Positions 4,967 to 38,331 are shown, numbered from the stretch's first letter. The stretch: 64,000 bases of DNA from an uncultured Eubacteriales bacterium (GCA_964354215.1 CAYGYT010000003.1:20272-84271); one strand, 5' to 3'. Translations and numbers: made by a program. Notes: generated by a model from the sequence alone, not told the origin.

Positions 4967-5511
4967 GATCCACCTCCCTCGAGGCCGAGCTGGCTCACGA
5001 GGATCCGGCGCGCTCGGAACACGCGGGACTTCACCGTGCCCACGGGGATGCCGAGAGCCGCGGCGGCTTCGCCGTAGCTCAACCCGAAGAGCGTGATCGC
5101 GTTCAAGGCGTCGCGGTCCTCGGGCGCGAGCGATGCCATGGCGATTTCCATGCTGGCTGAAAGCGCGACCTCGTCGGCAAGGTCCCCTGCACTAGCAAGC
5201 GAGACGGTGGACGGGTCCACGGGAGTCGGGCGGTGCTTGCCGCTGCGGAGCATGTCGAGACATGTGTTTCGCGTGACGCGATACAGCCACGTCGAGAACG
5301 CCGACGTTCCGTCGAACGAGCCGATCGAACGGTAGACCTTGATGAATACCTCTTGCACGACGTCCTCGGCTGGATCGGGGCTGCCAAAGAAACGCACCGC
5401 GTGGCCGTAGACCGCTCGCGTGTGCGCACGGACGAGTTCCTCGAACGCTTGCGTATCGCCTTCGCGGGCACGTGCGACGAGCGCTGTGTCATCGGGCCGC
5501 TGGGCCTGCAT
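4963..5511 (-). CDS. ECF-type RNA polymerase sigma-70 family factor
   Basis: Region 2 (DVVQEVFIKVYRSIGSF ... STWLYRVTRN) and region 4 HTH (LSYGEAAAALGIPVGTVKSRVFRAR) are both present. The ATG at 5511 has an AAGGAA SD. The longest ORF begins with GTG at 5550. Confidence 0.9.
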   Translation of the reverse strand: MQAQRPDDTALVARAREGDTQAFEELVRAHTRAVYGHAVRFFGSPDPAEDVVQEVFIKVYRSIGSFDGTSAFSTWLYRVTRNTCLDMLRSGKHRPTPVDPSTVSLASAGDLADEVALSASMEIAMASLAPEDRDALNAITLFGLSYGEAAAALGIPVGTVKSRVFRARRILVSQLGLEGGGS

Positions 5512-5555
5512 CTCGTTCCTTTGGACGACGGTGCACTCCGATCGGTTCACGCTGA

Positions 5556-6758
<1,203 letters not shown>

Positions 6759-6885
6759 GCGGCATCGAGCCCACTGCCTCGTCGCCCTACCGGGGAGCAC
6801 GGCCAGGCCCCAGAGGTTCCGCTCGGCGCGCGGCAGGTAACGAGCCGGGAACCCTCGCGATTTCATCGGCAAGCAGAATGAAAGT

Positions 6886-6894
6886 TGCTATCAT
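6886..6894 (+). promoter_or_regulatory. extended -10 promoter TGcTATCAT upstream of yajC
   Basis: Read directly. It sits about 62 nt upstream of the yajC ATG, and an ACGCGGCC/GGCCGCGT hairpin lies in the putative leader. Confidence 0.4.
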
Positions 6895-6956
6895 GTTCCG
6901 TCGGGTCGACGCGGCCCTGTGATCGTGGTCGGCCGCGTACTGGTGTGGAGGTAGGT

Positions 6957-7262
6957 ATGAGCGGCTCCCAGACGAATCTCCTTCTGTACTTCGCGCTGCT
7001 AGCAGTCGCGTTCTACCTCCTCATCATCCGGCCGCAGCAGCAGCGCCAGCGACAGCAGCGCGAGCTCATGGCCGCCTTGAAGGCGGGTGACCGGGTGATT
7101 ACGGTGAGCGGCATCTACGGCACCGTCGTCTCCATGGACGCTGAGACCGTGATGCTGCGCATCGCCGAAGGGGTCGAAGTCGAGGTCGCGCGGGGAGCGA
7201 TCTCGCAGATCGTCGAGTCATTCTCGGCGGCTTCATCGCCCGAGGAACCGCCGGATGAATGA
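6957..7262 (+). CDS. yajC: preprotein translocase subunit YajC
   Basis: One TM helix followed by GDRVITVSGIYGTV. GGAGGTAGGT SD precedes the ATG at 6957. The gene sits before secDF. Confidence 0.9.
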   Translation: MSGSQTNLLLYFALLAVAFYLLIIRPQQQRQRQQRELMAALKAGDRVITVSGIYGTVVSMDAETVMLRIAEGVEVEVARGAISQIVESFSAASSPEEPPDE

Positions 7263-7423
7263 ACCGGCTCGCACGTGCCGGCACGCGCCGGTCGCGAGCC
7301 ACACGGTTCGTACGCCGACCGTCGGCGAGGCGCGCTAGCCGAACCGCGCTCGCGCTCTACCGCCCACGGAGCCACGCCCCTCACGGGGCTTCGCAGGACG
7401 CAACACGCTAGGAAGGCCAAGGA

Positions 7424-8740
7424 ATGGACCAGAAGCAGAAGAACGTCATCTCGCTCGTCACGATCGCGGTGCTGGTCATCGGCTCGTGGGCGATCGTGCT
7501 TCCGCCGCAGGAGAAGATTACCCAGGGGCTCGACATCCAGGGCGGGGTGTCCGTGATCCTCACGGCTCAGGAGACCACGTCCACGAAGGTGACTGCAGCG
7601 GTCATGGACCGCGCCGAACTGATCGTGAACAACCGCGTGAACAAGCTCGGCGCATCCGAGGCATCGATTCAGAAGCAGGGCAACGACTCGATCCTCGTGC
7701 AGTTGCCCGGCGTCAAGAATGCCGCGGAAGCGCTCAAGGTGCTCGGGTCGACCGGCCAGCTCGAGTTCGTGGACGTCGAGACGATCACCGACTCCGCGAC
7801 CGTTGCGGCCATCCAGTCAGGCGATGAGAACGTCGAGCTCAAGCCGGGTACCTACACACCGGTCATGACGGGCGAGGTGGTGACGAACTCCTCGGTGGGC
7901 ACTGATTCGACCACCAACAAGATCGTCGTAAACGTCACCATGAACAACAAGGGCCGCCAGGCCTGGGGCGACTACACGACGTCGCACGTCGGAAAGCAGG
8001 TCGCCATCGTACTCGACGGCAAGGTGCAGTCGGCTCCCACGGTCCAGGAGCCGATCACCGACGGGCGTACGCAGATCAGCGGCAGCTTCACTCCCACCGA
8101 CGCCAAGAATCTCAAGACGGTGCTTGAGACGGGCGCCCTGCCGGTCACGCTGGTCTTCTCCGAATCCCGCACGGTCGGCCCGACTCTCGGACAGGACTCC
8201 TTGCGCCAGGGCGTGCTCGCTGCTCTCGCCGGCCTCGCGCTGGTGATGCTCTACATGGCGCTCTTCTACAGGGGACTCGGGGTGATCAGCTGGTTCTCGC
8301 TGCTGATCTTCTCCTCCATCTTCCTCGGGGTGCTCGCGCTGCTCTCCACATTCGGCTGGTTCGCCCTGTCGCTCCCGGGCGTCGCCGGCATCGTGCTAAC
8401 CATCGGCATGGCAGCCGACTCTACTATCCTTCAGCTCGAGCGTTTCAAAGAGGAAATCGGCATGGGCAAGACGCTTCGCAGTGCCGCCAAGTCCGGGACG
8501 ATGCACGCATTCTGGACGAGCGTGGACGCCGACCTCGTGACGTTCGTCTCGGCGCTGGTGCTGTTCCTCGTAGCGGTCGGCCCGATCAAGGGCTTTGCGC
8601 TCACACTCATGATCGGGATTGCGTGCGACCTCACAGTCGCGTTCCTGTTCACGCGTACGGCGATTATGCTCTTTGCCGAATCGGGGCTGACGAAGGTGCC
8701 CTGGCTCTTCGGTCTGAAGGGCGGTGCCTCACGTGCGTAG
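7424..8740 (+). CDS. secD: protein translocase subunit SecD
   Basis: 438 aa. N-terminal TM, periplasmic-type P1 domain (GLDIQGGV...), and a C-terminal 5-TM bundle. Confidence 0.95.
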   Translation: MDQKQKNVISLVTIAVLVIGSWAIVLPPQEKITQGLDIQGGVSVILTAQETTSTKVTAAVMDRAELIVNNRVNKLGASEASIQKQGNDSILVQLPGVKNAAEALKVLGSTGQLEFVDVETITDSATVAAIQSGDENVELKPGTYTPVMTGEVVTNSSVGTDSTTNKIVVNVTMNNKGRQAWGDYTTSHVGKQVAIVLDGKVQSAPTVQEPITDGRTQISGSFTPTDAKNLKTVLETGALPVTLVFSESRTVGPTLGQDSLRQGVLAALAGLALVMLYMALFYRGLGVISWFSLLIFSSIFLGVLALLSTFGWFALSLPGVAGIVLTIGMAADSTILQLERFKEEIGMGKTLRSAAKSGTMHAFWTSVDADLVTFVSALVLFLVAVGPIKGFALTLMIGIACDLTVAFLFTRTAIMLFAESGLTKVPWLFGLKGGASRA

Positions 8741-9629
8741 ATTCAACATTGACTTCATGGGACACAAGTGGGTGTTCTTGGGCTTGTCCGCGGTTCTCAT
8801 CGTGGTCTCGATCGCCGGTCTGCTCGTCAGGGGGCTCAACCTGGGCATCGAATTTGAGGGCGGCACCGCCATCAGCTTCACGAAGGTCACGACTGTTTCG
8901 ATCGGCGAGATGCGTCGCGCCTTCGTGGATGCAGGCATCAAGGAACCGGGTGTCCAGAGCATCCAGGGCGGGGGGTACCTCGTTCGCTTCGCCGAGTCGG
9001 ACCCCGACATAGCCAACACGGCATATGTAGCGGTCGTGAAGAGCCTGGATCTCCCTGACGACGCGGGGGACGTCACCACGATCGGCCCCGGGTGGGGCAA
9101 ACTCATCACCAACCGCGCGCTCCTTGCCGCCACACTCGCGATCGCCGCGATCCTGCTCTACATATCGATCCGGTTCGACTACAAGATGTCGATGACGGCC
9201 GTTCTCGCGCTGGTGCACGATGGCATCATCGTTCTGGGCATATACGCGTGGTCCGGTAGGGAGGTCACACCGAGTACGATCGCGGCGCTTCTAACGATCC
9301 TGGGCTACTCGTTGTACGACACGATCGTCGTGTTCCACCGCATCAAGGAGAACTCGCAACACATCAGCAAGCAGACGTTCTCTCAGATGGCGAACGAGTC
9401 GATCAACCAGGTGCTCGTGCGATCCATGAATACCTCGATCACGTCGCTCATACCGGTGCTGGCCCTGCTCTTCTTCGGCGGTCCTACGCTGCAGGATTTC
9501 GCGTTCGCGCTGTCTGTGGGACTGATATCCGGCGCATACTCGTCGGTAGGTATCGCCGGGATCTTGTACGCGATGTGGAAAGAGACCGAGCCGCGCTATC
9601 AGGCGCTCAAGAAGAAGTACGCCGCCTGA
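8724..9629 (+). CDS. secF: protein translocase subunit SecF
   Basis: FNIDFMGHKWVF start region, LGIEFEGGT, and 6 TM. GTG start at 8724 (or 8733) overlaps the end of secD. Confidence 0.95.
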   Translation: MPHVRRFNIDFMGHKWVFLGLSAVLIVVSIAGLLVRGLNLGIEFEGGTAISFTKVTTVSIGEMRRAFVDAGIKEPGVQSIQGGGYLVRFAESDPDIANTAYVAVVKSLDLPDDAGDVTTIGPGWGKLITNRALLAATLAIAAILLYISIRFDYKMSMTAVLALVHDGIIVLGIYAWSGREVTPSTIAALLTILGYSLYDTIVVFHRIKENSQHISKQTFSQMANESINQVLVRSMNTSITSLIPVLALLFFGGPTLQDFAFALSVGLISGAYSSVGIAGILYAMWKETEPRYQALKKKYAA

Positions 9630-9658
9630 TCACGCGGCGCGCAACGTGTCGAACACCC

Positions 9659-9684
9659 GGGGCCGGCACGCATGTGTCGGCCCC
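9659..9684 (+). terminator. hairpin after secF (GGGGCCGGCAC-GCAT-GTGTCGGCCCC)
   Basis: 11-bp stem with one G-U pair and a 4-nt loop. GTTCGC follows. It lies immediately upstream of the recJ -10 box. Confidence 0.5.
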
Positions 9685-9690
9685 GTTCGC

Positions 9691-9696
9691 TAGGAT
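9691..9696 (+). promoter_or_regulatory. -10 box TAGGAT placed 6 nt before the recJ-fusion ATG (probable leaderless transcript)
   Basis: TAGGAT at 9691-9696, ATG at 9703, no SD between them. Confidence 0.3.
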
Positions 9697-9702
9697 GAGA
9701 CC

Positions 9703-12700
9703 ATGTCGATATCGATGGGTTCCCGTGCGGCGGGCCGGTGGCGGCTTGCGCCGGCCGACGCTGCCGTCGTCCACGAGCTAGCGAGTGCAACCGGCTTGTC
9801 CGAGGTCACGGCGCGCGTTCTCGCGTGCCGAGGCATAGACAGCATTGAGGCAGCCGGGCGCTTCCTCGGCCCTGATCTCGATCGCGACTGGCTCGACCCG
9901 GCTCTGATTCCGGGGATGAGCGATGCCGCGGACCGCGTCACCCAGGCCGTGGGCTCCCGGGGGCGCATCGTGGTCTTCGGCGACTTCGATCTCGACGGTA
10001 TCGCTTCGGCGGCCCTGACGACGATCGGCCTGCGAGCGATGGGTGCCGATGTGCGCGCCGTCGTGCCCCACCGCTTCCGCGAGGGGTACGGGCTGTCGCG
10101 CGCTGCGCTCGAGCGTGTCTTCGCCCTCAAGCCGTCCCTGGTGGTGACGGTCGACTGCGGCGTCTCGGCGGCGTCGGAGGTCGAGGCGCTTAGCGAACGG
10201 GGAGTAGCGTGCGTAGTCACGGACCACCACGAGCCCGGTGCTGGCATGCCTTCGGGCATTCCGGTCGCGAACCCGAAGCTCGACCCGATGTGCTCATCGC
10301 GCGCGCTTGCGGGTGCGGGCGTTGCGCTCAAACTCGTGCAGGCAGTAGGCGAGCGGCTCGGTCGCCCGGACGTCTGGCGCGAACTCGTGGATCTCGCGAC
10401 TTTGGGGACGGTCGCGGATATCGTCCCGCTCGTTGGCGAGAACCGCGCGCTCGTCTACGAGGGCCTTCGTGCGATGCGATCGTCGCCGCGCCTTGGCGTC
10501 GCTGCACTCGCCTCGGCCGCCAGCGTGTCACTCGAGACGCTCGACGCCGAGGGCATCGGTTTCGCACTCGCGCCGCGCCTCAACGCCGCGGGTCGGATGG
10601 GAGACCCGGCCGACGCGCTTCAGCTGCTCGTGACCGATGACCCCGCGCTTGCCGAGCGCCTGGCGATCGGTCTCGACGAGCAGAACCGCGCACGCCAAGC
10701 GGTCGAGCAGGACCTGGCAGAGGCTGCGCTCGCACAGGCGGAACGGGTCTACGCGGGTGAGCGCGCGCTCGTCCTTGCCGGAGACGGCTGGCACGAGGGT
10801 GTGAAGGGGATCGTCGCTTCGCGTATCGCGTCCACGTACGGCGTGCCGACGCTGCTCTTCACCATTGAGGGTGGCGAGGCCCGGGGCTCCGGACGAAGTG
10901 TCGGTACCGTTGACCTCTACCAAGCAGTGTCCGGGGCAAGTGCAAGCTTGACGCGGTTCGGCGGACACGCCGCCGCGGTCGGGTGCGCGCTTCCCGCTGA
11001 CGCACTGCCTGGATTCACTCGCGAGCTGCTCGCGGAGCTCGACGAGCTTCCGGGAGAGGCGTTTGCGGTCGAGACTCTCTACGACGCTGAGATCGCGCTC
11101 GAGGACGTCGGGCTCGAACTGTCAGCCGAGTTCGCGCGGCTTGCACCACATGGGCATGGGAACCCTCGTCCGCTCCTGTCGACTCGTTCGGTCTTCATGA
11201 ACGGGCGACAGCGAGTAGGAAAGAGCGGAAACCACCTGCGCTTCACGGCCTACGACGGCGGAGTGTCGGTGCCGGCGATCGCTTTCAGGTGTCGAGATAT
11301 CGCGGTATTTGCGCTCACGGACGCGCCCGTCGACCTGGCATACGGAATCGAGACGGACCAGTGGCGTGGACGCCACCGCGTGCAGCTCGTGGTGCGCGAC
11401 GTCATGGCGCATGAGGCGCCCGAACTCACTCAGGTGGGCGTACTCATCGAAGACCTCTTCGCGCGTGCCGATGAGATCATCGCTCGTGAGGAATACGCGG
11501 GCATCGGCGATGCCGAGTCCTTCCATACGAAGCTCGCTGGCGTGACGTTCGAGGGGCGCCAAGGGGTTCTGGCACGGATCGAGCCCGGCACCCCACTCAG
11601 GCTCGAGCGGCAGCCCGCGAACGAGTACGACACGAACGCGATCGCGCTCTTCGACCCCTTCGGTGATCAGGTTGGCTTCTTCAACCGTCGGCTTGCGGCG
11701 GCGCTCGCGCCCGTGGTGGACGCAGGCAACGCATACGACGTGGAAGTGACGGACGTAACCGGGGGTGAAGACGGACGGAGTCTCGGCGTGAACGTGCTCG
11801 TCTCGAGGCGGGGGAGCCGCGAGGACGCGGCTTCCTCCGCGGAACGTCAAGCGGAACGAAGAGCCGTGCTCTCCGCGCTCGTCCCAGCCGATCTGGATGC
11901 GGAACTTACCCGCCTCTTCCTCGGTGAGCGCCGTCTCCACGCTGCGCAAGCGCAGGCGCTCGCGCACCTTGCGAACGGCGAGAACACCCTGCTCGTCATG
12001 GCGACCGGGCGGGGGAAGTCGGTCGTGTTCCATCTTCACGCGGCGCGGCTTGCACTACACGAAGCAGCCGCCTCGCTGTTCGTCTACCCGCTTCGCGCGC
12101 TCGTCTCGGATCAGGCGTTCCATCTCGAGACGACCTTCGCCGACGCCGGGCTGGCGGTCCGAACGCTTACGGGCGAGTCAGCCCCCACCGCGCGTGACGA
12201 GGCGTTTGCGGCGCTCGCGGATGGGCTGCTGGACGTCGTGCTCACCACGCCGGAGTTCCTCGACCATCACGCGAGGCGGTTCGCCGAGAGCGGACGCGTG
12301 CGGTTCGTCGTGGTGGATGAGGCGCACCACGTGGGGATGGCCCGCGCGGGCCACCGCCCCGCATATGCGCGGCTCGACCGAGCGCTCGCCACGCTCGGCG
12401 CACCGGTCGTGCTGGCTGCAAGTGCGACCGCGGGCGACGAGACAGCGGATGCCATCCGAACCGTCCTGGGCGTCGAACGCGTCGTGGCTGATCCGACGGT
12501 GCGCGACAACCTGCGCATCGAGGACAAGCGCGACCACGCCGACAAGGACACGTACGTGTGCGCGCTTGCAGCCGGTGGAGACAAGTTCGTCGTGTACGTG
12601 AACTCCCGGGAGCAGTCGGTACGCATCGCACGCACGCTGAGAAAGCGCGTCGGGGGCATCGCTATGCGGACCGCATTCTACAACGGAGGTCTGTCCCGCG

Positions 12701-13341
12701 AGGCGCGTCTCGCGGTGGAGCGCGCGTTCCGTTCGGGCGAGGTGACCGCAGTGGTCGCCACGAGCGCGTTTGGCGAGGGCGTCAACATCCCCGACATCCG
12801 TCACGTGGTTCACTACCATCTACCCTTCGGGGAGGTCGAGTTCAACCAGATGTCGGGCCGGGCGGGCCGCGATGGGGCGGCCGCCTCGGTACACCTTCTG
12901 TTCGGCCGAAAGGATGCGCGCATCAACGAGTCGATCCTGAGCAGCCTCGCCCCCGAGCGCGACGACCTGGCCGCGCTCTACCTCGTTCTGCGCGAAGAGC
13001 ACGCGCAGTCGGGGGAGGGATTCGAGGTCACGAACGCCGAGCTCGCCGAGCGGGCGAGACGGCGCCGCCGGCAGTTCGCCCTCGACGAGCGTGGCGTGTC
13101 CTCGGCGCTCGGCATCCTTCGGGAACTCGGGCTCGTGGATGGCGAGGGGCAGGGGTCGTATCGGCGGCTAACGCTCCTGCCTGCTCCCGCCGAGAAGCTC
13201 GACTTGGCACAGTCGGTCCGCTACGCCGAAGGCCTCGACGAGATCGCTGAGTTCGGCGAGTTTAGAGACTGGGTGCTTTCGGCCGAGCCGCCCGTGTTGC
13301 TCGAGCGGTTCAACCGTCCTATCCTGCCTACACACCTCTGA
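9703..13341 (+). CDS. recJ: single-stranded-DNA-specific exonuclease RecJ fused to a HIRAN domain and a RecQ-like SF2 helicase (1212 aa)
   Basis: RecJ motifs: DFDLDG, VDCG, TDHH, GGHAAAVG. HIRAN-like block: LRLERQPANEYDTNAIALFDPFGDQVGFFNRRLAAALAPVVD. Helicase motifs: MATGRGKS, VVDEAHH, SAT, QMSGRAGRDG. No stop or frameshift occurs between the domains. Confidence 0.9.
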   Translation: MSISMGSRAAGRWRLAPADAAVVHELASATGLSEVTARVLACRGIDSIEAAGRFLGPDLDRDWLDPALIPGMSDAADRVTQAVGSRGRIVVFGDFDLDGIASAALTTIGLRAMGADVRAVVPHRFREGYGLSRAALERVFALKPSLVVTVDCGVSAASEVEALSERGVACVVTDHHEPGAGMPSGIPVANPKLDPMCSSRALAGAGVALKLVQAVGERLGRPDVWRELVDLATLGTVADIVPLVGENRALVYEGLRAMRSSPRLGVAALASAASVSLETLDAEGIGFALAPRLNAAGRMGDPADALQLLVTDDPALAERLAIGLDEQNRARQAVEQDLAEAALAQAERVYAGERALVLAGDGWHEGVKGIVASRIASTYGVPTLLFTIEGGEARGSGRSVGTVDLYQAVSGASASLTRFGGHAAAVGCALPADALPGFTRELLAELDELPGEAFAVETLYDAEIALEDVGLELSAEFARLAPHGHGNPRPLLSTRSVFMNGRQRVGKSGNHLRFTAYDGGVSVPAIAFRCRDIAVFALTDAPVDLAYGIETDQWRGRHRVQLVVRDVMAHEAPELTQVGVLIEDLFARADEIIAREEYAGIGDAESFHTKLAGVTFEGRQGVLARIEPGTPLRLERQPANEYDTNAIALFDPFGDQVGFFNRRLAAALAPVVDAGNAYDVEVTDVTGGEDGRSLGVNVLVSRRGSREDAASSAERQAERRAVLSALVPADLDAELTRLFLGERRLHAAQAQALAHLANGENTLLVMATGRGKSVVFHLHAARLALHEAAASLFVYPLRALVSDQAFHLETTFADAGLAVRTLTGESAPTARDEAFAALADGLLDVVLTTPEFLDHHARRFAESGRVRFVVVDEAHHVGMARAGHRPAYARLDRALATLGAPVVLAASATAGDETADAIRTVLGVERVVADPTVRDNLRIEDKRDHADKDTYVCALAAGGDKFVVYVNSREQSVRIARTLRKRVGGIAMRTAFYNGGLSREARLAVERAFRSGEVTAVVATSAFGEGVNIPDIRHVVHYHLPFGEVEFNQMSGRAGRDGAAASVHLLFGRKDARINESILSSLAPERDDLAALYLVLREEHAQSGEGFEVTNAELAERARRRRRQFALDERGVSSALGILRELGLVDGEGQGSYRRLTLLPAPAEKLDLAQSVRYAEGLDEIAEFGEFRDWVLSAEPPVLLERFNRPILPTHL

Positions 13342-13361: not shown

Positions 13362-15590
13362 ATGCCCGCAACGCTCGAACAGATAGAGGCGCAGGTCAGG
13401 GAATACAACCCCGGCGCGGATCTGAGCGGGCTTGCCGAGGCGTACGCCTTTGCCGTCGAGGCCCACGAGGGCCAGATGCGCAAGTCGGGGGAACCGTTCG
13501 TCAAGCACCCGGTCGAGGTCTGCCTCATCCTCGCCGAGCTCCACCTCGACAGCGCGACGCTTACGGCTGCCTTGTTGCACGACGTGGTCGAGGACTCGTC
13601 GGTGCCGCTCTCTGAGATTCGCGAGCACTTCGGCGACGAGGTCGCGGATCTTGTGGATGGGGTCACAAAGCTCGGCAAGATCAAGTTCGCGTCACTCGCC
13701 GAGCAGCAGAGCCAGAACCTGCGAAAGATGCTCATCGCGATGGCGAAGGACATCCGGGTCATCCTCATCAAGCTCGCCGACCGCCTGCACAACATGCGCA
13801 CGCTCGCGGCGCTTCCCGAGGACCGGCGTCGCGAGAAGGCCATCGAGACGATGGAGATCTACGCGCCGCTCGCGCACCGCCTCGGCATCTCGAGCATCAA
13901 GTGGGAGCTCGAGGATCTCGCCTTCTACTATCTGGAGCCGCACAAGTTCCACCAGGTGGCGCGGATGGTAGCGGAGAGCCGGGAGGCGCGCGAGGAGTAC
14001 CTCACTCAGGTGGTGGATCAGCTTCAGACCGAGCTTCGGGCTATCGGGGTGGACGCCGATATCAAGGGACGCCCCAAGCACTTGTACAGCATCTACCAGA
14101 AGATGGCTCGCAAAGGTAAGGACTTCAACGAGATCTATGACCTGATCGCGCTTCGCGTGATCGTCGACTCGGTCAAGGACGTCTACGGTGCGCTCGGCAC
14201 CGTTCACTCCATCTGGAAGCCGGTGCCCGGGCGGTTCAAGGACTACGTGGCGATGCCCAAGTTCAACATGTACCAGTCGCTGCACACGACGGTCATCGGT
14301 CCGGCCGGCCGGCCGCTCGAGATCCAAATCCGCACGGAGGAGATGCACCGCACCGCCGAGTATGGTGTGGCGGCGCACTGGCGCTACAAGGAGGACCGTC
14401 GCGGCGACGAATCGTTCGACGAGCGGCTCGCTTGGCTTCGGCAGATGCTCGAATGGCAGACCGAGCTCAAGGATCCGCGCGAGTTCATGGAGGCCTTGAA
14501 GATCGACCTCTTTGAGGACGAGGTCTTCGTCTTCACACCGAAGGGCGACGTCGTCTCGCTCAGGCGCGGCTCGACACCCATCGACTTCGCCTACACCATC
14601 CACACTGAGGTCGGCAACCGGACGGTCGGCGCGAAGGTCAACGGCGCCATCGTTCCGCTCGGCTACGAGCTGCAAATGGGCGACCGCATCGAGATTATGA
14701 CGAACAAGAGCTCCACCCCGTCGCGCGACTGGCTAAACATCGTGCGCACGTCGAGCGCGAGGAGCAAGATCCGGAGCTACTTCTCCAAGGTCAACCGCGT
14801 CGACGACCTGCAGCATGGCCGAGAGGAACTCGGCAAGGTCATGCGCAAGCATGGGATGGGCATCGGGTCCTCGACCGCCGCGAAGGCCCTGGAGGCCGTC
14901 GCAAAGGATATGAACTACGCGTCCGCCGACGACATGCTCGCCGGCATTGGCGGGGGCAAGCTCTCGGCGAAGCAGGTCGGCACCAAGCTCCTGAAACGTA
15001 TGGCCAAGGACGGCCAGAAGGGCGTCGCCGAGAAGCTCCCCGGCGAGTCGCCCGATATGCTGCCGCTCACACAACCGATGCGCCCGCCGCGATCCAAGCG
15101 CCAGAAGCCGGGGGGCGGCGTGAAGGTTGTCGGGATCGATGACGTGCTCGTGCGTCTTGCGCACTGCTGCAACCCGGTACCGGGCGACGGAATCGTCGGC
15201 TTCGTCACACGCGGGCGCGGCGTATCGGTGCATCGGCGAGACTGCCCGAACGCCGTCGAACTGCTCAAGTCACCGGAGCGGATCATCGAGGTCGAGTGGG
15301 ACCGGGCGGCGTCGTCGACCTACCAAGTCGAGATCTACGTCGAAGCGCTCGACCGCATGCGGCTCCTGCAAGACGTGACCGCCGCGCTTGGTGAGTCGGG
15401 CGTCAACATCCTTGCCGCCTCGACGCAGACCCAGCGCGACGGCATCGTGAACATGCGCTTCCTCTTCGAGCTCGGCAACATGGACCAGCTCCAGTCGGTA
15501 CTGCGAACCGTGCACTCGATCGACGGCGTCTTCGAGGCCCGCCGGATGCTACCGGGCGAGAGCAGCGGTCAGCGCAAGGCGGGCGTATAG
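13362..15590 (+). CDS. relA: bifunctional (p)ppGpp synthetase/hydrolase (RelA/SpoT homologue)
   Basis: 742 aa. HD hydrolase domain (HDVVEDS), synthetase domain (YQSLHTTV, RTEEMH), and TGS and ACT C-terminal domains. Confidence 0.96.
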   Translation: MPATLEQIEAQVREYNPGADLSGLAEAYAFAVEAHEGQMRKSGEPFVKHPVEVCLILAELHLDSATLTAALLHDVVEDSSVPLSEIREHFGDEVADLVDGVTKLGKIKFASLAEQQSQNLRKMLIAMAKDIRVILIKLADRLHNMRTLAALPEDRRREKAIETMEIYAPLAHRLGISSIKWELEDLAFYYLEPHKFHQVARMVAESREAREEYLTQVVDQLQTELRAIGVDADIKGRPKHLYSIYQKMARKGKDFNEIYDLIALRVIVDSVKDVYGALGTVHSIWKPVPGRFKDYVAMPKFNMYQSLHTTVIGPAGRPLEIQIRTEEMHRTAEYGVAAHWRYKEDRRGDESFDERLAWLRQMLEWQTELKDPREFMEALKIDLFEDEVFVFTPKGDVVSLRRGSTPIDFAYTIHTEVGNRTVGAKVNGAIVPLGYELQMGDRIEIMTNKSSTPSRDWLNIVRTSSARSKIRSYFSKVNRVDDLQHGREELGKVMRKHGMGIGSSTAAKALEAVAKDMNYASADDMLAGIGGGKLSAKQVGTKLLKRMAKDGQKGVAEKLPGESPDMLPLTQPMRPPRSKRQKPGGGVKVVGIDDVLVRLAHCCNPVPGDGIVGFVTRGRGVSVHRRDCPNAVELLKSPERIIEVEWDRAASSTYQVEIYVEALDRMRLLQDVTAALGESGVNILAASTQTQRDGIVNMRFLFELGNMDQLQSVLRTVHSIDGVFEARRMLPGESSGQRKAGV

Positions 15591-20913: not shown

Positions 20914-22278
20914 ATGGACAGCCTCTTTGACGAGCAGGCCGATGCAGCACGCGCGGCGGTCGCCCCGCTTGCTGTGCGGATGCGGCCGCAGAGCCTCTCG
21001 CAGTTCGTCGGACAGACCGACGTCGTCGGACCCGGCACGTGGCTTCGGCGTGCGATCGAGGACGACTCCCTCTCCTCACTGATCCTCTACGGCCCTGCAG
21101 GCACCGGGAAGACCAGCCTCGCACGTGTCATCGCTGCGGAGACAACTGCGCACTTCGAGGAGGTCTCCGCCGTGTCCTCCGGGGTCGCCGAACTCCGCCG
21201 CTTGATCGAGGCCGCGGCCGACCGTCTCGCTCTGTCGGGTCGGCGCACCATCCTGTTCGTCGACGAGATCCACCGCTTCTCGAAATCCCAGCAGGATGCA
21301 CTGCTCCACGCCGTCGAAGACCGGCTCGTCGTGCTCATCGGCGCCACCACCGAGAACCCGTTCTTCGAGGTGAACGCGCCACTCATCAGCCGCTCGCGCA
21401 TCGTCCAGCTCGAGCTGCTGTCCGACGACGAGATCCGTCTCATCGTCCGACGCGCGCTCCAAGATGAACGCGGACTCGCGGGGGCGGTGATACTCGACCC
21501 AGATGCCGAGGACCAGGTTGTGCTTACCGCGGGTGGAGACGCGCGCGTCGCGCTCACCACGCTCGAGATCGGGGCGGCACTCGCCAGCCCGGCCGAGGAC
21601 GGCGTGCGCCACGTGATCCTCGGGCAGGTACGCGAGGCCACGCGGACGCGACAGCTTCCGTACGACAAGACCGGCGACGTCCACTACGACGTCATCTCCG
21701 CCTTCATCAAGTCGATGCGCGGCAGCGACCCCGATGCGGCGGTCTACTGGCTCGCGCGGATGATCGAAGGCGGCGAGGACCCGAAGTTCATCGCGCGTCG
21801 CATCCTCGTATTCGCCTCCGAGGACGTGGGCAACGCCGATCCACACGCGGTGCTCATCGCGCATGCGGCATTCAAGTCCGCAGAGGCGATCGGCTGGCCG
21901 GAGTGCCGCATCAACCTCTCACAAGCTGCCGTGTACATGGCGCTTGCCCCGAAGAGCAACGCGTCGTATCGAGCAATCGACGCGGCGCTCGCAGAGGTGC
22001 GGGGTGGTCCGGCGCGCGCTGTGCCCAGCCATCTGCGGGATCGGCATCGTCCCGGCGCCGAGAGCTACGGCCCGTACCGATACCCGCACGACTACCCCGG
22101 AGCGCAGGTCAAACAACAGTACCTCCCGGACGGTCTGCCCGGTGGGGCCTTCTGGCGTCCGTCGGACAGGGGCTGGGAGGCCGCGCGCTCCTCGGCGGCG
22201 GGGGTCTTGGAAGGCACCGGACACGATGGCTTCGAGCCGGTCGATCCGGCCTCGGGCGACGTCCCGCCGGGGGAGTAG
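20914..22278 (+). CDS. rarA: replication-associated recombination protein A (RarA/MgsA AAA+ ATPase)
   Basis: Walker A GPAGTGKTSLA, Walker B LFVDEIHRF, and the MgsA C-terminal block YDVISAFIKSMRGSDPDAAVYWLARM. Confidence 0.93.
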   Translation: MDSLFDEQADAARAAVAPLAVRMRPQSLSQFVGQTDVVGPGTWLRRAIEDDSLSSLILYGPAGTGKTSLARVIAAETTAHFEEVSAVSSGVAELRRLIEAAADRLALSGRRTILFVDEIHRFSKSQQDALLHAVEDRLVVLIGATTENPFFEVNAPLISRSRIVQLELLSDDEIRLIVRRALQDERGLAGAVILDPDAEDQVVLTAGGDARVALTTLEIGAALASPAEDGVRHVILGQVREATRTRQLPYDKTGDVHYDVISAFIKSMRGSDPDAAVYWLARMIEGGEDPKFIARRILVFASEDVGNADPHAVLIAHAAFKSAEAIGWPECRINLSQAAVYMALAPKSNASYRAIDAALAEVRGGPARAVPSHLRDRHRPGAESYGPYRYPHDYPGAQVKQQYLPDGLPGGAFWRPSDRGWEAARSSAAGVLEGTGHDGFEPVDPASGDVPPGE

Positions 22279-33191: not shown

Positions 33192-34862
33192 ATGACCGCG
33201 AGTAGCAATCGGCTTGGAAGGATCCTCGTCCAGTCCGGCGTCATCACGGATTCACAATTCGAAGAGGCGCTCGCGCAGGTGGACGGGCGCTCGATAGCGT
33301 CCGTGATCTCGGATCTTGGCTACGCCGACGAGGCTCTCATCGCTCGCACCGTTGCGGACTCGATGGGACTTACATACGTGGATCTCGCGGCCACGGAAGT
33401 CGATGCCCACGCAGCGACGCTCATCTCTTCCGACCTCGCCCGCCGCTACATCGTGCTGCCGATCCAGCTCCAGGACGACGAGCTCGTCGTAGCCATGTCG
33501 GATCCCGCGAACATATTCGCCATCGATGACCTTCGCATCGTGACGGGCTACACCGTTCGCCCCGTTGTCGCCGCAGAGAGCGATCTGGTGAGCGCCATCG
33601 AGAAGCTTTCGACAGCTCAGACGAGCGTCGAGGACATGATGGGCGATCTGGAAGAGGCGCTCAGCGTAGGCGCCGACGACGAGGACGAGGACAGCGGAGA
33701 CGCGGAAGCCCCCGTGGCCAAGCTCATGAATCTCGTCATCACGGAGGGAATCCGGCAAGGAGCGGGAGACATCTATCTCGAGCCCCACGAGCACGAGATG
33801 CGTGTCCGCTTCCGGATCGACGGCGTGTGCCAGGAGGTCTTCCGCAGCCCCAAGAAGATGCACCGGCAGGTCATCAGCCGGCTCAAGATCAACGCCGGCA
33901 TGGACATCGCCGAGAAGCGCGTGCCCCAGGACGGACGCTTCAGCGTGGTGCTCGACGGCAAGGCGGTGGACTTCAGAGTCGCCGTACTCCCGCTCGTCCA
34001 CGGCGAGCTTGCAGTTCTGCGCCTGCTGCGCCGGGACTCGATCATGATGTCGCTCAAGGACCTCGGCTTTCTCCAGCAGCCGATGGACCGTCTACGCGAG
34101 GCGCTCTCGCTTCCCTACGGTGCCATCCTCGTCACCGGCCCGACGGGGTCGGGCAAGTCCACGACGCTGTACGCGGCGATCAACGAGACCAACGACCCCA
34201 AGACGAACCTCATCACCGTCGAAGATCCGGTCGAGTACCGCCTCGCCGGCCTCTCGCAAGTCCAGGTGCACGAGAAGGCTGGACTGAGCTTCGCGGCGGC
34301 ACTTCGCTCGATCCTGAGGCAGGACCCCGACACCGTGATGATCGGTGAGATTCGCGACAAGGAAACCGGGACGATCGCGATCGAAGCCGCCCTCACGGGC
34401 CACCTCGTCCTCTCAACGCTGCACACGAACGACGCTCCCTCGGCACTCACGAGGCTGACTGAGATGGGTATCGAGCCGTTCCTGTCGGCCTCGGCGGTCA
34501 CCTGCGTGCTGGCACAGCGGCTTGCACGGCGACTCTGTCCGGAGTGTAAGCAGGAGTACGTGCCGGAAGAAGAAGCTCTCGTGCGCGTCGAGTTTCCGTT
34601 TGAGCCGGGCAATCCGCCCAAGCTCTACCGCGCGGTTGGGTGCAAGAAATGCAACGGGATCGGCTACCGGGGGAGGATGGGCGTCCACGAGGTGCTCACC
34701 ATGTCAGAGCCCCTCGAACGCCTGGCCGTCTCGAATGCCTCGGCCGACGACATCAAGCGTCAGGCGGTTGCCGAGGGGATGCGGACCCTGCGCGAGGACG
34801 GCTTCGAGAAGGTCAAGGCGGGCGTCACGTCAATCGAGGAGATCATGCGCGTCGTTGTGTGA
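33192..34862 (+). CDS. GspE/PilB-family type II/IV secretion ATPase (first of two paralogues)
   Basis: N-terminal T2SSE_N-type domain (RLGRILVQSGVITDSQFEEAL), Walker A GPTGSGKST, Walker B DPDTVMIGEIRD, and the tetracysteine CPECK...CKKCNGIGYRGR. Confidence 0.9.
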   Translation: MTASSNRLGRILVQSGVITDSQFEEALAQVDGRSIASVISDLGYADEALIARTVADSMGLTYVDLAATEVDAHAATLISSDLARRYIVLPIQLQDDELVVAMSDPANIFAIDDLRIVTGYTVRPVVAAESDLVSAIEKLSTAQTSVEDMMGDLEEALSVGADDEDEDSGDAEAPVAKLMNLVITEGIRQGAGDIYLEPHEHEMRVRFRIDGVCQEVFRSPKKMHRQVISRLKINAGMDIAEKRVPQDGRFSVVLDGKAVDFRVAVLPLVHGELAVLRLLRRDSIMMSLKDLGFLQQPMDRLREALSLPYGAILVTGPTGSGKSTTLYAAINETNDPKTNLITVEDPVEYRLAGLSQVQVHEKAGLSFAAALRSILRQDPDTVMIGEIRDKETGTIAIEAALTGHLVLSTLHTNDAPSALTRLTEMGIEPFLSASAVTCVLAQRLARRLCPECKQEYVPEEEALVRVEFPFEPGNPPKLYRAVGCKKCNGIGYRGRMGVHEVLTMSEPLERLAVSNASADDIKRQAVAEGMRTLREDGFEKVKAGVTSIEEIMRVVV

Positions 34863-34944
34863 TGCGTGGCCCCTTGACCCTCGTTGTGCCTGACTGACCA
34901 TCGTGAGAGTATGAATCCACTGTGGCGTTCGGCTGGGGAGAGCC

Positions 34945-35763
34945 GTGCGACCCTTTGTTGCCGCACCATATGACGTGGAGGTGCTCGGATCAGTGACGGA
35001 GAACGGACTCGGTGACTTCTTCATCGCGGACACCGGTGATGAGCTTCCCGGATTCGCGCCGACCCCTGTTGTGATCCCGCCGTCTCCGAGCTCGCCGCCT
35101 GTGGTGCCAGCGGGGCCGTGGGACGCGCAGGAGGAGCGATCCGATGCGGGGCGAGCGGACACGGTGCAGCCCGGAGCCCCCGCTTCTCCCGCGGCTGCAC
35201 CGGAACCGGTGTTCGCTCCGTACGTCGAGCCGGCGATCGCGTCGCCCGCTATCCCGGCCCCCGTCTTTGCACCTGCGCCTGCGTCACCCCTGGTGCCCGT
35301 AGCATCCCCGGAGGCGCTCACGGAGGATTCGACGGCAGCCCCGGCCCCAGCGTCTGGAGCTGCTGCCTCCCCGGCGGCTCCTTCCGCGGCGAGCCCGACG
35401 CGTGAACAGCAGCTCGCTGCCGCGCTCAATACCTTCATGCGCATGTCGGACGACGTAGAGGCCGCTGCACTGGTGAGTCTCGACGGCTTCACGATGGCCT
35501 CGGCCCTGCCCGAGGGCATGCACGAGGACCGCGTTGGTGCGATGTCGGCGGCCATCCTCGGGTTGGGGGAACGTGCGGCCGCCGAGCTCGGTCGGGGCAA
35601 GCTTTCGCAGGTCTTCATTGAGGGCGATGCCGGCTACGTGCTGCTGATGGCAGCGGGCGATAGGGCCGTGCTCACGGCGCTTGCGAACCTCGATGCGAAG
35701 CTCGGTCTGCTCCTGTACGACATGCGAGACGTCGCCGACGCCATCGCCGACATTCTCGGCTAG
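34945..35763 (+). CDS. Roadblock/LC7 (MglB/CvnB-like) domain protein with a ~165-aa Pro/Ala-rich N-terminal extension
   Basis: The C-terminal ~105 aa (VEAAALVSLDGFTMASALPEG...AMSAAILGLGERAAAELGRGKLSQVFIEGDAGYVLLMAAGDRAVLTAL) fit the Robl/LC7 pattern. Confidence 0.75.
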   Translation: MRPFVAAPYDVEVLGSVTENGLGDFFIADTGDELPGFAPTPVVIPPSPSSPPVVPAGPWDAQEERSDAGRADTVQPGAPASPAAAPEPVFAPYVEPAIASPAIPAPVFAPAPASPLVPVASPEALTEDSTAAPAPASGAAASPAAPSAASPTREQQLAAALNTFMRMSDDVEAAALVSLDGFTMASALPEGMHEDRVGAMSAAILGLGERAAAELGRGKLSQVFIEGDAGYVLLMAAGDRAVLTALANLDAKLGLLLYDMRDVADAIADILG

Positions 35764-35795
35764 CGAATCGGATCCGAAAGCGAATGACGTAGCCG

Positions 35796-37790
35796 ATGGC
35801 TCTGAGAGGCAACCTCAAGGACTTCACCCTCCCGGACGTCTTCCAGCTCATCAGCTTGAGCAAGAAGACAGGCATCCTTCGTATGCGCCGTCCCGACGAC
35901 GCCGAGGGCAGCGTCTGGTTCCGCGAGGGAGAGGTGTTCTTCGCCCAGTCGAACTGGCATAGGGAGCGTCTCGGTGAGCGGCTCGTCGCTGCGCAGAAGA
36001 TCACGCCGAGCGCTCTTGGGCGTGTTCTGCAGGTTCGTGCTGCGGAACCCGAAGGGCGTCGCCTCGGCACCATCCTCGTCGACGAGGGCTACATAACCGA
36101 GACCGTCTTGGAGGCGTTCGTCCAGGAGCAGATTCAGGACACGATCTTCGATTTGATGCGCTGGGACGATGGCGAGTTCGACTTCGAGTTGCTTCCCCAG
36201 ATCGTCGAGGAGGATATCGGCCTCACGGTCTCGATAGAGAACATCGTGATGGAGGGCAGCAGGCGGCTCGAAGAGTGGGCGCGGATCAAGAAGAAGGTCC
36301 CCTCGATGGACATCGTGTTCAAGATGGCCACCGCTCCCGGCGAGGGCACGTTCGAGATCTCCCTCAAACCGGTCGAATGGAACCTTCTGCTGCTGGTCGA
36401 CGGCACTCGCAGCGTCGCCGAGCTTGCACGTACCGCTCGCCGCACTGATTTCGACGTGGCGCGGGTCGTCTACGGACTGTTCTCCGCGGGGCTGCTCGAA
36501 GTCGTCAGCGATGAGGAAGTAGCGCGGCTCCGTGCCGCGCGCGCCGCGCGAGAGACCGAGCTGGCCGAGGAGGCTTCTTCAATCGCCGCAACGACACCCG
36601 TTGCGGCAGCGGTCATTGAGGAGACGACCGAGCCGCCGGCCGGTACCGCCGTCGAGACGACTCCAGCTCCCTCGGTGCCAGCGGTGCAGGCGGCTCCTGC
36701 CCAGCTCGAGGTCATGGCGGCCGCCGAATCGGCGCCGCGTGCGGCTCCGACCGACCTGCCGCGGTTCCTCGCCGGGGACGTGCCGGCGGCGGGCCCCGGC
36801 ATCACCGAGCTCGAGGAGCGGTACGGGCGACTGCGCGAGGCCGCCGCATCGGTCTCCTCGGCGCCGGAGCAGGTGCCTCCGCGACAAGCTGCGCCATCAC
36901 AACCGCTCGCACCACCGGAGGAGTCGCCGACGCCAGAGCCAGTGGTTCTCGGGCCCGAGGCGTCGATGGAACCCGAGCTCCCCGTGCCGCCGATGCCCGA
37001 AGAAGCACAACCGCCGTTCGTCGAATCCCGCGAGGATTCCGAGCTGCAGCCATTCGTTGAGCCGTCAGCGCATCCATCCCGCCTGACCTCCGACGTGCCG
37101 CCTGCTCAGACGGAGGTCCTTTCATTCGCGGAGGAGACGTTCGTCGGGACCGTCGAGGTTGAGGCACCTTTGGAATCGACCGAGCCGGTGGTCTACCTCG
37201 GTGGGGATGAGACCATCGAGGAGGCCGAGGTTCCTGCGTCAGATGGGGTTTCGCCACAGCTGGAGTCGGAGCTCCTCGCGCTCGGTCTTGCCGCAGCGCC
37301 GCCACAGGCGCCCGAACCGGACGTTGGCGTCAACGAGCCACACGGCGTCATTCCGAGTGAACCGGAGCTCGAGGAGTCTGTGTCGGCCGTCAGCGGGCCC
37401 GAGTCCCCGGAAGAGCGGGCTGCCGCCGATGAGGCGGCCACATCCGACCTCGACGAGCTGATCGGTGCTTTGGGCGAGAGCGCCGGCGACGCGGCCGTTT
37501 CGGATCGAGTGCTCTCCACCGACGCGTATCTCCTGGATGTCTCAATCGGCGAAGCCGCCCCGGAACCGCCTGCCCTCGAGACCACGCCGGCGGCCGACGC
37601 CCGCGTGGACGCTGGGCTGAGTGGAGCGATAAACGACGAGATCAACGCGCTCACGGGGGTCGAGCGCGGCGGCCGGCCGGTCACGAGGATCACCGACCTT
37701 CCCGAACCAGGATCGGCCGTACCCCAACGCGACAGGAGTGTGGACCGAGAGACGCTGCTCAGGATCATCGATGGTATCAAGAGACTCTAG
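35796..37790 (+). CDS. DUF4388 domain protein with a ~400-aa acidic/Pro-rich low-complexity region
   Basis: The N-terminus LRGNLKDFTLPDVFQLISLSKKTGILRM...GSVWFREGEVFFA matches the DUF4388 signature as I remember it. The rest is E/P/A/S-rich. Confidence 0.7.
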   Translation: MALRGNLKDFTLPDVFQLISLSKKTGILRMRRPDDAEGSVWFREGEVFFAQSNWHRERLGERLVAAQKITPSALGRVLQVRAAEPEGRRLGTILVDEGYITETVLEAFVQEQIQDTIFDLMRWDDGEFDFELLPQIVEEDIGLTVSIENIVMEGSRRLEEWARIKKKVPSMDIVFKMATAPGEGTFEISLKPVEWNLLLLVDGTRSVAELARTARRTDFDVARVVYGLFSAGLLEVVSDEEVARLRAARAARETELAEEASSIAATTPVAAAVIEETTEPPAGTAVETTPAPSVPAVQAAPAQLEVMAAAESAPRAAPTDLPRFLAGDVPAAGPGITELEERYGRLREAAASVSSAPEQVPPRQAAPSQPLAPPEESPTPEPVVLGPEASMEPELPVPPMPEEAQPPFVESREDSELQPFVEPSAHPSRLTSDVPPAQTEVLSFAEETFVGTVEVEAPLESTEPVVYLGGDETIEEAEVPASDGVSPQLESELLALGLAAAPPQAPEPDVGVNEPHGVIPSEPELEESVSAVSGPESPEERAAADEAATSDLDELIGALGESAGDAAVSDRVLSTDAYLLDVSIGEAAPEPPALETTPAADARVDAGLSGAINDEINALTGVERGGRPVTRITDLPEPGSAVPQRDRSVDRETLLRIIDGIKRL

Positions 37791-37802
37791 GAGCGGGATG
37801 GC

Positions 37803-38330
37803 ATGCAGTCCGTGAAAGTCGTCATCACCGGTCCCTTCAACGCCGGCAAGACCACGTTCATCAAGGCGGTGAGCGAGATTACCGTGCTCTCGACGGAGCG
37901 CCAGGTGAGCGATATCTCAGGCGAAGGGGGCGGCGAGACGACGGTCGCAATGGATTTCGGTCGCATCACGGTGTCTGACGACGTCGTGTTGTACCTGTTC
38001 GGCACACCCGGCCAAGAGCGCTTCTCGTTCATGTGGGACACGCTCTCCGAGGGGATGCTCGGCTTCGTCGTGCTGGCCGACGGGACCAACCGGGAGTCCC
38101 TTTCCGACGCGCGCGCGATGATCGACTACTTCACGAAGCTCTCCGATGTCTCGTTCGTGGTCGCCGCGAATCGCATGGATGCAGGTGATGCAGAGGGGCT
38201 CTCTCATGTCCGTTCCGATCTCGGATTGGACGAGAGCGTCCCGCTGCTCTCGGTCGACGCGCGAGACCGGGAGTCAGTGAAGTCGGTCCTGCTGGGTCTG
38301 CTCTACCGCATTCTGGAGAGCGTCGGCTAG
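37803..38330 (+). CDS. small Ras-like GTPase of the CvnD/MglA-like (COG2229-type ATP/GTP-binding protein) family
   Basis: P-loop GPFNAGKT, TTVAMDFGRI, G3-like LYLFGTPGQERF, and G4-like AANRMD. AGGAGCGGG SD is present. Confidence 0.8.
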   Translation: MQSVKVVITGPFNAGKTTFIKAVSEITVLSTERQVSDISGEGGGETTVAMDFGRITVSDDVVLYLFGTPGQERFSFMWDTLSEGMLGFVVLADGTNRESLSDARAMIDYFTKLSDVSFVVAANRMDAGDAEGLSHVRSDLGLDESVPLLSVDARDRESVKSVLLGLLYRILESVG

Positions 38331-38331
38331 G

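Follow-up and report, generated by a model that had tools for sequence, protein, structure and literature searches.

In a stretch of 64,000 nucleotides from an uncultured Eubacteriales bacterium (GCA_964354215.1, CAYGYT010000003.1:20272-84271; this whole 64-kb stretch is called the window below, and positions are counted from its first letter), the gene that occupies the place of recJ encodes a chain of 1212 residues joining four parts: a complete RecJ core, a HIRAN domain, a superfamily 2 (SF2) helicase core resembling that of RecQ, and a tail of the winged-helix type. In this bacterium of the Coriobacteriia type, the gene is probably the housekeeping recJ of its lineage, and it would specify a single-chain helicase-nuclease used for resection or gap widening, with the HIRAN domain docking a 3'-OH end. 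RecJ is a 5'-3' exonuclease of single-stranded DNA (ssDNA) and RecQ a 3'-5' helicase, and the two jointly enlarge gaps at their 5' end before RecFOR loads RecA. The fusion of genes that code for known partners is a classic 'Rosetta stone' signature. In Bacillus subtilis, long-range end resection is carried out by RecJ with a RecQ-like helicase (PMC12448304). A reading of the DNA made beforehand from its letters alone (the sequence-only reading) had asked how widely the architecture occurs. It is not unusual among known sequences: this is the standard 'RecJ' in a large part of the Coriobacteriia, and it is found in Bacillota and Armatimonadota as well.

Anatomy of the chain

The open reading frame (ORF) of the fusion (Table 1) opens with ATG and has no internal stop codon over its 1212 residues. 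The sequence-only reading had described it as uninterrupted, and this holds, the RecJ, HIRAN, helicase and tail parts sharing their frame in about 50 related loci as well. Every motif that it had quoted lies at the residues it gave: DFDLDG (94-99), VDCG (150-153), TDHH (173-176) and GGHAAAVG (420-427) in the RecJ half, then MATGRGKS (766-773), VVDEAHH (870-876), SAT (907-909) and QMSGRAGRDG (1049-1058) in the helicase half. The division into RecJ core, HIRAN, RecQ-like SF2 core and winged-helix tail was likewise recovered by profile, fold and motif searches, and the profiles for DHH, DHHA1, RecJ_OB, HIRAN, DEAD/ResIII and Helicase_C all exceed their Pfam gathering scores.

To judge by these profiles, the N-terminal part is a member of the RecJ family. 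It passes the recJ equivalog TIGR00644 (429.2 bits for a cut-off of 396.9), residues 33-566 covering positions 2-545 of the 546 in the profile, and Pfam places DHH at 88-236, DHHA1 at 355-444 and RecJ_OB at 460-566 (80 bits). The nearest solved relatives are the RecJ structures 8y30, 5f54 and 2zxo. All the catalytic motifs are present, and a 5'-3' exonuclease activity is predicted; D94, D96, D98, D151, D174, H175, H176, G420, G421 and H422 do not vary among 40 diverse full-length members of the family.

A linker with helices predicted at 577-587 and 589-598 in the structural model, its sequence kept in close relatives, leads from the RecJ OB fold to the HIRAN domain. The Pfam HIRAN profile (PF08797) matches residues 606-677 with 43.2 bits (gathering score 24.7) and is also matched in 37 of 40 diverse family members; the string LAGVTFEGRQ lies at 611-620, in a domain that the sequence-only reading had started at about residue 607. 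The region is modelled as a beta-rich fold, with a predicted local distance difference test (pLDDT) of about 77-90. Aspartate 94 of human HLTF is said to contact the 3'-OH in the HLTF HIRAN structures of 2015. In a phmmer alignment, the HIRAN structures of that protein (2mzn, 4xzf, 5bnh, 4s0n) match residues 631-676 (E = 6e-5), which sets LERQPANEYDTNAI of the fusion protein opposite LQRDPNNPYDKNAI of HLTF, making N640, Y642 and D643 the equivalents of N91, Y93 and D94; in the diverse family, the conservation of N640, D643 and A646 is 90% or higher. Our own alignment of the first strand would put F616 at the position of Y72, and the pocket residues of HLTF (Y72, N91, Y93 and D94) all have counterparts here, that of Y72 through this alignment only. 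In HLTF, Y72 and Y93 sandwich a short segment of ssDNA, the terminal dinucleotide (PMC4666394). The profile score and the aligned pocket indicate a bona fide HIRAN domain, with binding of 3'-OH ends as a putative property. Helices are predicted in the model across the linker that follows (703-747), which includes a segment resembling the 'motif 0' of RecQ with a glutamine kept in most members; the RecQ profiles begin to align at residues 740-741.

The SF2 core is complete in the fusion protein, with motifs I, Ia, II (DExH), III, IV, V and VI. Lobe 1 carries motifs I (MATGRGKS), Ia (PLRALVSDQ), II (VVDEAHH) and III (SAT), together with a reduced loop of the RecQ type ending in GHRPAY, while motifs IV, V (TSAFGEGVNIP) and VI (QMSGRAGRDG) belong to lobe 2. 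Human RECQ4 (5lst) is the best match by sequence of residues 570-1212 among solved structures (E = 3e-31), and the further matches are the RecQ cores 4tmu, 1oyw and 4q47 as well as WRN, RECQL5 and BLM. The C-terminal half of the protein was modelled with AlphaFold2 (pLDDT 83.7, predicted template modelling score 0.76). With this model, Foldseek retrieves the catalytic cores of RecQ, RECQL5, WRN and BLM (E = 1e-22 to 1e-18) in alignments of about 510-530 columns, that is, the whole of RecQ catalytic cores of 511-516 residues, zinc and winged-helix parts included. The segment specific to RecQ that comes after motif II is still recognisable (…GHRPAY, as compared with …GHDFRPEY in Escherichia coli). 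The sequence-only reading had named a helicase of the RecQ type. The motifs and the best sequence and fold matches support that name, but the family profile TIGR00614 is failed and the aromatic loop is weakened (see below); on these scores the motor is RecQ-like, and falls outside the definition of the RecQ family.

The chain ends 150 residues past motif VI. Its last 149 residues, modelled at pLDDT 86.7, fold into a helical hairpin, followed by a winged-helix-like unit of three strands and by a pair of helices at the end, and they close with the family signature RFNRPILP. Fold matches of this tail are weak (best E = 0.02), and each is to a winged-helix regulator, of the ArsR/SmtB, MarR or CodY type. 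A search of the PDB with a profile built from 30 tail sequences gave nothing significant, the 757-residue RecJ 8y30 and the other solved RecJ proteins included. The only reproducible link by sequence is with Pfam PF10141 (ssDNA-exonuc_C), matched by 7 of the 30 family tails (best E = 7.9e-7), an uncharacterised domain found at the C-terminus of long RecJ proteins. By this link, the tail is a module specific to the RecJ family. A winged helix devoid of the zinc-binding cysteines, RQC and HRDC of RecQ had been anticipated, and this is what is seen: no Pfam match to these modules, weak winged helix-turn-helix folds, and not a single cysteine after residue 953, so that the four-cysteine zinc-binding module of RecQ is absent.

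Position, spread and reduction of the family

Upstream of the fusion gene, Pfam identifies in order tgt, yajC, secD and secF, and downstream relA/spoT, a hydrolase of the MBL fold, crcB, hisS and aspS, with relA/spoT starting 20 nucleotides past the stop codon. The succession tgt-yajC-secDF-fusion-relA-MBL-hisS is the classical neighbourhood of recJ in Gram-positive bacteria. G+C at third codon positions is even along the fusion ORF (0.78-0.83; 66% G+C for the window), and the 64 kb contain neither another recJ nor a recQ. When one genome per species was scanned with residues 585-866, 52 related loci were obtained, belonging to Coriobacteriia, Anaerosomatales and other metagenome-assembled genomes (MAGs) of Actinomycetota (61-82% identity), and to the cultured Olsenella porci (53%). 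The proteins of the neighbouring genes and each of the fusion's four parts were mapped onto these loci by tblastn. In about 50 of the 52, and in essentially all that are long enough for it to be seen, RecJ, HIRAN, helicase and tail lie in a single frame between secF and relA; in O. porci the fusion is one ORF, with relA immediately after. Since the locus is fixed in about 50 genomes and the composition even along the ORF, this is probably a housekeeping gene. The sequence-only reading had placed it at the recJ position, between secDF and relA, and had argued from there for a housekeeping gene and against a mobile defence gene; the related genomes agree.

Two irregularities were noted among the 52 loci. 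In one MAG (L016), the RecJ segment (6266-7483) and the segment with HIRAN, helicase and tail (8034-9872) lie in different frames, the mapping being only partial; the cause may be a frameshift, a pseudogene or faulty assembly in that one genome. In nine loci (L023, L016, L027, L029, L034, L039, L040, L049 and L051), about 2.4-3 kb separate the fusion gene from relA. The sole insert examined (L023:9881-12880) encodes a protein of 999 residues that has NIDO and fibronectin type III domains; it is probably secreted and has nothing to do with repair.

Conservation along the chain is of the purifying kind. In 20 relatives (62-86% identity), little or no variation is seen in the RecJ motifs, in the N..D.NA of HIRAN or in helicase motifs I, Ia, II, III, V and VI. 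Among 40 diverse full-length members, the helicase motifs remain intact in about three quarters, and they are degenerate in the most distant ones; the protein of the window is in the fully intact group.

The fusion is a large and old family, widespread in Gram-positive anaerobes and filed under 'RecJ', not a rarity. In a collection of 5.8 billion proteins, each of the best 120 clusters at 90% identity shows the same seven Pfam domains over 1178-1252 residues and, wherever a name is given, this name is 'single-stranded-DNA-specific exonuclease RecJ'. An exhaustive HMMER search was made in 1.84 billion representatives at 50% identity, and the best 150 matches were classed by coverage of the query. 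At least 51 clusters at this level carry the full fusion, the 51 representatives found among these 150 being 28-53% identical to the query from end to end. HIRAN is missing in 25 (about 1020-1140 residues); 26 retain RecJ, the second helicase lobe and the tail (about 850-900 residues); four consist of RecJ and tail (about 810-870 residues); ten comprise HIRAN, helicase and tail without RecJ (589-952 residues), either as N-truncated fragments or as stand-alone genes of about 630-670 residues; the 34 remaining are RecJ-only proteins, fragments and partial classes. Full-length members include a Clostridia MAG (MDD2401180.1), a Bacillota MAG (MEW6308947.1), Natroniella sp. ANB-PHB2 (WP_408954824.1) and an Armatimonadota MAG (MBI4279602.1). 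The fusion ranges over Coriobacteriia/Atopobiaceae, Clostridia, Halanaerobiales and Armatimonadota, and all those of its members that bear a name are called 'RecJ'. When the homologue search was seeded with the O. porci protein, RefSeq proteins of Parafannyhessea umbonata (1229 residues) and Atopobium fossor (1227 residues) were retrieved. The RecJ of Olsenella uli (P0376, 1117 residues, 107 member sequences) keeps RecJ and helicase, with no HIRAN recorded. Because this protein and similar relatives of about 1100 residues are without HIRAN, the domain must have been lost or gained within the Atopobiaceae.

A census of motifs by regular expressions over the 150 representatives, counting proteins that hold motifs I, II and VI together, found them in 42 of the 51 full-length proteins, in 16 of the 25 without HIRAN and in none of the 26 reduced to RecJ, lobe 2 and tail. 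In the latter class Helicase_C is still seen by Pfam in six of ten tested; motifs V and VI are gone and the tail motifs persist. The nine remaining full-length proteins, as cases in point P0217 (Natroniella), P0221 and P0243, are 'dead-helicase' versions that have kept every RecJ motif. A series of reduced forms can be laid out in this way, from the full fusion to proteins without HIRAN, then to those with a motif-less lobe 2 and the tail (about 850-900 residues, as in Pelosinus MCE5284916.1), and to RecJ with the tail. The C-terminal domains of long Bacillota RecJ (PF10141, motif-less Helicase_C) may be vestiges of a helicase.

Elsewhere in the window, a gene for an AAA+ recombination factor of the RarA/MgsA type (20914-22278, forward strand) lies 7.5 kb downstream of the fusion, beyond hisS and aspS, and a type IV pilus cluster extends over 33192-44966 on the same strand (Table 1).

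Table 1. The fusion gene, its parts and other features of the window
Feature	Position	Strand	Basis
RecJ-HIRAN-RecQ-like helicase-winged-helix fusion gene	9703..13341	+	single ORF, 1212 residues + stop
Complete RecJ 5'-3' ssDNA exonuclease core (predicted activity), residues 33-566	9799..11400	+	TIGR00644, Pfam, structures
Helical linker from RecJ OB fold to HIRAN, residues 567-605, '..LIEDLFARADEIIAREEYAGIGDAESF'	11401..11517	+	model and conservation
HIRAN domain, residues 606-702, putative 3'-OH DNA-end pocket	11518..11808	+	Pfam, phmmer, model
Helical linker and RecQ 'motif 0'-like segment, residues 703-747, '..LTRLFLGERRLHAAQAQAL..'	11809..11943	+	profiles, model
Helicase lobe 1 (RecA-like domain 1), residues 748-915	11944..12447	+	Pfam DEAD and ResIII; RECQ4/RecQ alignments
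Helicase lobe 2 (RecA-like domain 2), residues 952-1058	12556..12876	+	Pfam Helicase_C, 75 bits; fold search
C-terminal domain, residues 1064-1212, cysteine-free	12892..13338	+	model, fold search, PF10141
secD, upstream neighbour	7424-8740	+	Pfam; synteny kept in related loci
secF, upstream neighbour	8724-9629	+	Pfam; synteny kept in related loci
relA/spoT-type (p)ppGpp synthetase-hydrolase	13362..15590	+	Pfam HD_4, RelA_SpoT, TGS, ACT; synteny kept
PilB/GspE-type ATPases (two), pilus cluster	33192-34862, 38910-40598	+	
pilC, pilus cluster	40641-41852	+	
pilM, pilus cluster	43821-44966	+	
664-residue protein with MshE-type c-di-GMP-binding motif, pilus cluster	35796-37790	+	

Proposed function and its rivals

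In the resection reading, the RecQ-like motor would hydrolyse ATP and track 3'-to-5' on one strand, opening the duplex; the displaced complementary strand, which is 5'-ended, would be threaded into the hole of RecJ and degraded 5'-to-3'. The polarities would suit such a coupling, because a 3'-5' motor travels into the duplex the same way as an exonuclease working on the displaced 5'-ended strand. Activities that belong to separate partners in E. coli and B. subtilis would then be physically coupled in one chain, so as to leave a break with a 3' single-stranded tail, or a gap widened on its 5' side, ready for RecFOR and RecA. By analogy with HLTF, HIRAN could hold a free 3'-OH end, and this docking would load and orient the enzyme; the end might belong to the primer at a gap, to the nascent leading strand of a stalled fork or to a break. 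The winged-helix tail would substitute for the C-terminal DNA-binding module of RecQ. The sequence-only reading had imagined a self-contained machine for forks or gaps, which remains a reasonable deduction from the parts.

A number of observations weigh against this reading. We found no biochemical or genetic data for any member of the fusion family. The RecQ-family profiles TIGR00614 (159 bits for a threshold of 219.8) and TIGR01389 (160.9 bits against 640.2) are not passed, only profile positions 8-345 or so being aligned. RecQ_Zn_bind, RQC and HRDC have no Pfam match at E <= 0.01 in the fusion protein, HRDC being a domain that many RecQ proteins have, though not all. In the loop between motifs II and III (HHVGMARAGHRPAY, compared with HCISQWGHDFRPEY in E. 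coli), RP.Y is retained, and the aromatic residues of RecQ, W and F, are gone. With a score below the RecQ threshold, no zinc module, RQC or HRDC, and the loop aromatics replaced, the polarity of the motor and a true unwinding activity have to be assumed. Moreover, the ATPase motifs were lost in nine of the 51 full-length representatives and in all 26 of those reduced to RecJ, lobe 2 and tail; the persistence of a C-terminal region without motor motifs hints at a second, non-catalytic role. Finally, genes for HIRAN, helicase and tail without RecJ exist, three of them with 38-41% identity by tblastn to the protein of the window (L055, L136 and L137), so that this module is not obligatorily coupled to RecJ.

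These stand-alone genes deserve some attention in their own right. One of them (L055:6001-7974; P0242, 657 residues; 40% identity by HMMER and 38% by tblastn) lies in an array in which many small ORFs come after divergent HTH_3 genes, and its neighbour at 5003-5983 belongs to the phage family phrog_10048; the context looks like that of a prophage or a mobile element. Another (L137:632-2533, and also L138; P0251, 633 residues) has no RecJ part and comes right after the 3' end of a gene like secF, and an alpha/beta hydrolase gene follows it in L137; it appears to be a derivative devoid of RecJ at the same chromosomal position. A phage origin of the HIRAN-helicase module was considered and set aside, no clear phage homologue being found beyond the phage-like L055 context: tblastn in 50,697 GenBank phage records gave only generic matches to the RecQ core (25-31% identity), all 80 loci from a scan of IMG/VR matched the generic helicase core only (21-34% identity), and the matches of a fold search in BFVD were RecQ-like helicases of giant viruses, none of them evidently fused to HIRAN.

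A bolder version of the resection reading, which we consider doubtful though it is worth keeping in mind, would have the enzyme recognise nascent 3' ends as HLTF does, and unwind and digest the opposing 5'-ended strand at stalled forks and gaps; the fusion could also be ancient, with the C-termini of long RecJ proteins as its vestiges. If this were true, much of the biology of RecJ in Gram-positive bacteria would descend from a helicase-nuclease.

Among the rivals, the one that fares best, while being in our opinion unlikely, is that of a fork remodeller: HIRAN would capture the 3' end of the nascent leading strand and the motor would drive fork regression or other remodelling of branches, RecJ trimming the 5' end of the nascent lagging strand. 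HLTF, the only characterised protein with HIRAN and an SF2 motor, works by this logic (PMC4666394). Among the PHROG families, the helicase half matches phrog_6819 best, a 'Holliday junction branch migration helicase', and the housekeeping neighbourhood is rich in replication and repair genes, rarA (20914-22278) among them. Yet the motor is nearest to RecQ in sequence and in fold, not to SNF2 or to double-strand translocases of the RecG type, weak SNF2 matches occur in only six of 40 members, and a large sister group can do without HIRAN (O. uli, 1117 residues, is an example). To be sure, remodelling overlaps the favoured resection reading, RecQ itself acting at forks.

Somewhat less likely still is an ordinary RecJ with a regulatory extension binding DNA or proteins, in which ATP would act as a switch, for loading, clearance of the ssDNA-binding protein SSB or processivity, and not for processive unwinding. 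Such an extension would account for its retention in lineages after loss of all ATPase motifs, and for the kinship of the tail with PF10141, which stands at the C-terminus of long RecJ proteins lacking a helicase. However, every helicase motif is intact and invariant in the protein of the window and in all its close relatives, which makes selection for catalysis hard to avoid.

That a mobile anti-phage or conflict-system gene should have landed by chance beside secDF is highly improbable. The idea is suggested by what the helicase core (residues 738-1083; 11914-12951) scores with two PADLOC models, 189 bits for DpdF and 174 bits for PsyrT, and by the one stand-alone HIRAN-helicase homologue that stands in a phage-like array (L055). 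DpdF and PsyrT are RecQ-like helicases, the first from the Dpd DNA-modification system and the second from the PsyrTA toxin-antitoxin system, and these matches show how close housekeeping and defence RecQ-like motors appear in sequence. However, they are limited to the generic RecQ-like core, the NCBIfam model for DpdF is not passed (134 bits for a cut-off of 550), no Dpd or PsyrA partner genes are seen in the Pfam annotation of the neighbours, and the composition is like that of the neighbouring genes; the fixed housekeeping synteny of about 50 genomes effectively refutes the idea, and a role in defence was rejected on this ground. As for an artefact of sequencing or assembly joining separate recJ and helicase genes, we give it practically no chance and found nothing in its support, since about 50 assemblies made independently from related genomes have the same frame at the same position, and RefSeq genomes of cultured species have this frame too, which excludes frameshift and mis-assembly.

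RecJ and RecQ are the textbook partners of the RecFOR pathway and their coordination is still debated; a natural covalent fusion is independent evolutionary evidence for their partnership, and would allow unwinding coupled to 5' resection to be studied simply, in a single protein. HIRAN would find here its first clear housekeeping repair context in bacteria, making 3'-end sensing testable outside eukaryotes. Experiments are feasible, because the family is present in cultured Atopobiaceae associated with humans and animals (Olsenella, Parafannyhessea, Atopobium). Meanwhile, thousands of such proteins are labelled only 'RecJ', a label that hides a putative helicase-nuclease together with its graded degenerate forms.

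Relation to known systems

The sequence-only reading knew of no characterised protein of this architecture. Searches in the full text of open-access papers and preprints found no description of a RecJ-HIRAN-helicase fusion and none of its function, widespread as the architecture is (all of the best 120 clusters, and at least 51 clusters at 50% identity). Nor do we know of a characterised system with a RecJ of the DHH family and an SF2 motor in one chain. The protein can nevertheless be set beside several well-studied ones. With bacterial RecJ (E. coli; Thermus thermophilus, 2ZXO; Deinococcus radiodurans, 5F54; the 757-residue 8Y30) it shares its N-terminal 566 residues, the motifs and the locus, and it differs by some 645 extra C-terminal residues that hold HIRAN, the two-lobed SF2 motor and the winged helix. 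RecQ proteins (E. coli 1OYW, Cronobacter 4TMU, human RECQ4 5LST, RECQL5, WRN, BLM) are the best matches of residues from about 735 to 1085. They have in common with it a 'motif 0'-like segment, motifs I, Ia, II (DEAH) and III-VI, the RP.Y that comes after motif II and a winged helix at the equivalent position; by contrast, the fusion protein scores below the family threshold, is deprived of zinc cysteines, RQC, HRDC and loop aromatics, and is joined to HIRAN and RecJ.

HLTF and Rad5 resemble the fusion protein in that a single chain carries a HIRAN domain ahead of an SF2 ATPase, and the positions of Y93 and D94 in HLTF align. HLTF, however, is a double-strand translocase of the SNF2 type with a RING domain and no nuclease, whereas here a RecQ-like motor accompanies a RecJ nuclease. 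WRN, Dna2, RecBCD, AddAB and AdnAB illustrate the same concept of motor and nuclease in one chain or complex, where unwinding and degradation are coupled. WRN comes close to the fusion in having a RecQ-family helicase and an exonuclease in one chain, but its nuclease is N-terminal, of the DnaQ type and of 3'-5' polarity; RecBCD, AddAB and AdnAB combine superfamily 1 motors with PD-(D/E)XK nucleases, where the fusion combines SF2 with a DHH RecJ. In the archaeon Thermococcus kodakarensis, HAN, a RecJ-like DHH nuclease, operates with Hef, an SF2 helicase-nuclease, in the repair of stalled forks (PMC5717133). Hef and HAN associate the same two kinds of partners; unlike the fusion, they are separate interacting proteins without HIRAN, and they belong to other helicase and RecJ subfamilies.

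Related as well are the long Bacillota RecJ proteins (PF10141) and those of 850-900 residues that hold a remnant of Helicase_C. They share the RecJ core and, for some of them, the winged-helix tail and a lobe 2 without motifs, but they have neither HIRAN, nor lobe 1, nor the ATPase motifs; next to them, the protein of the window is the complete and apparently active form.

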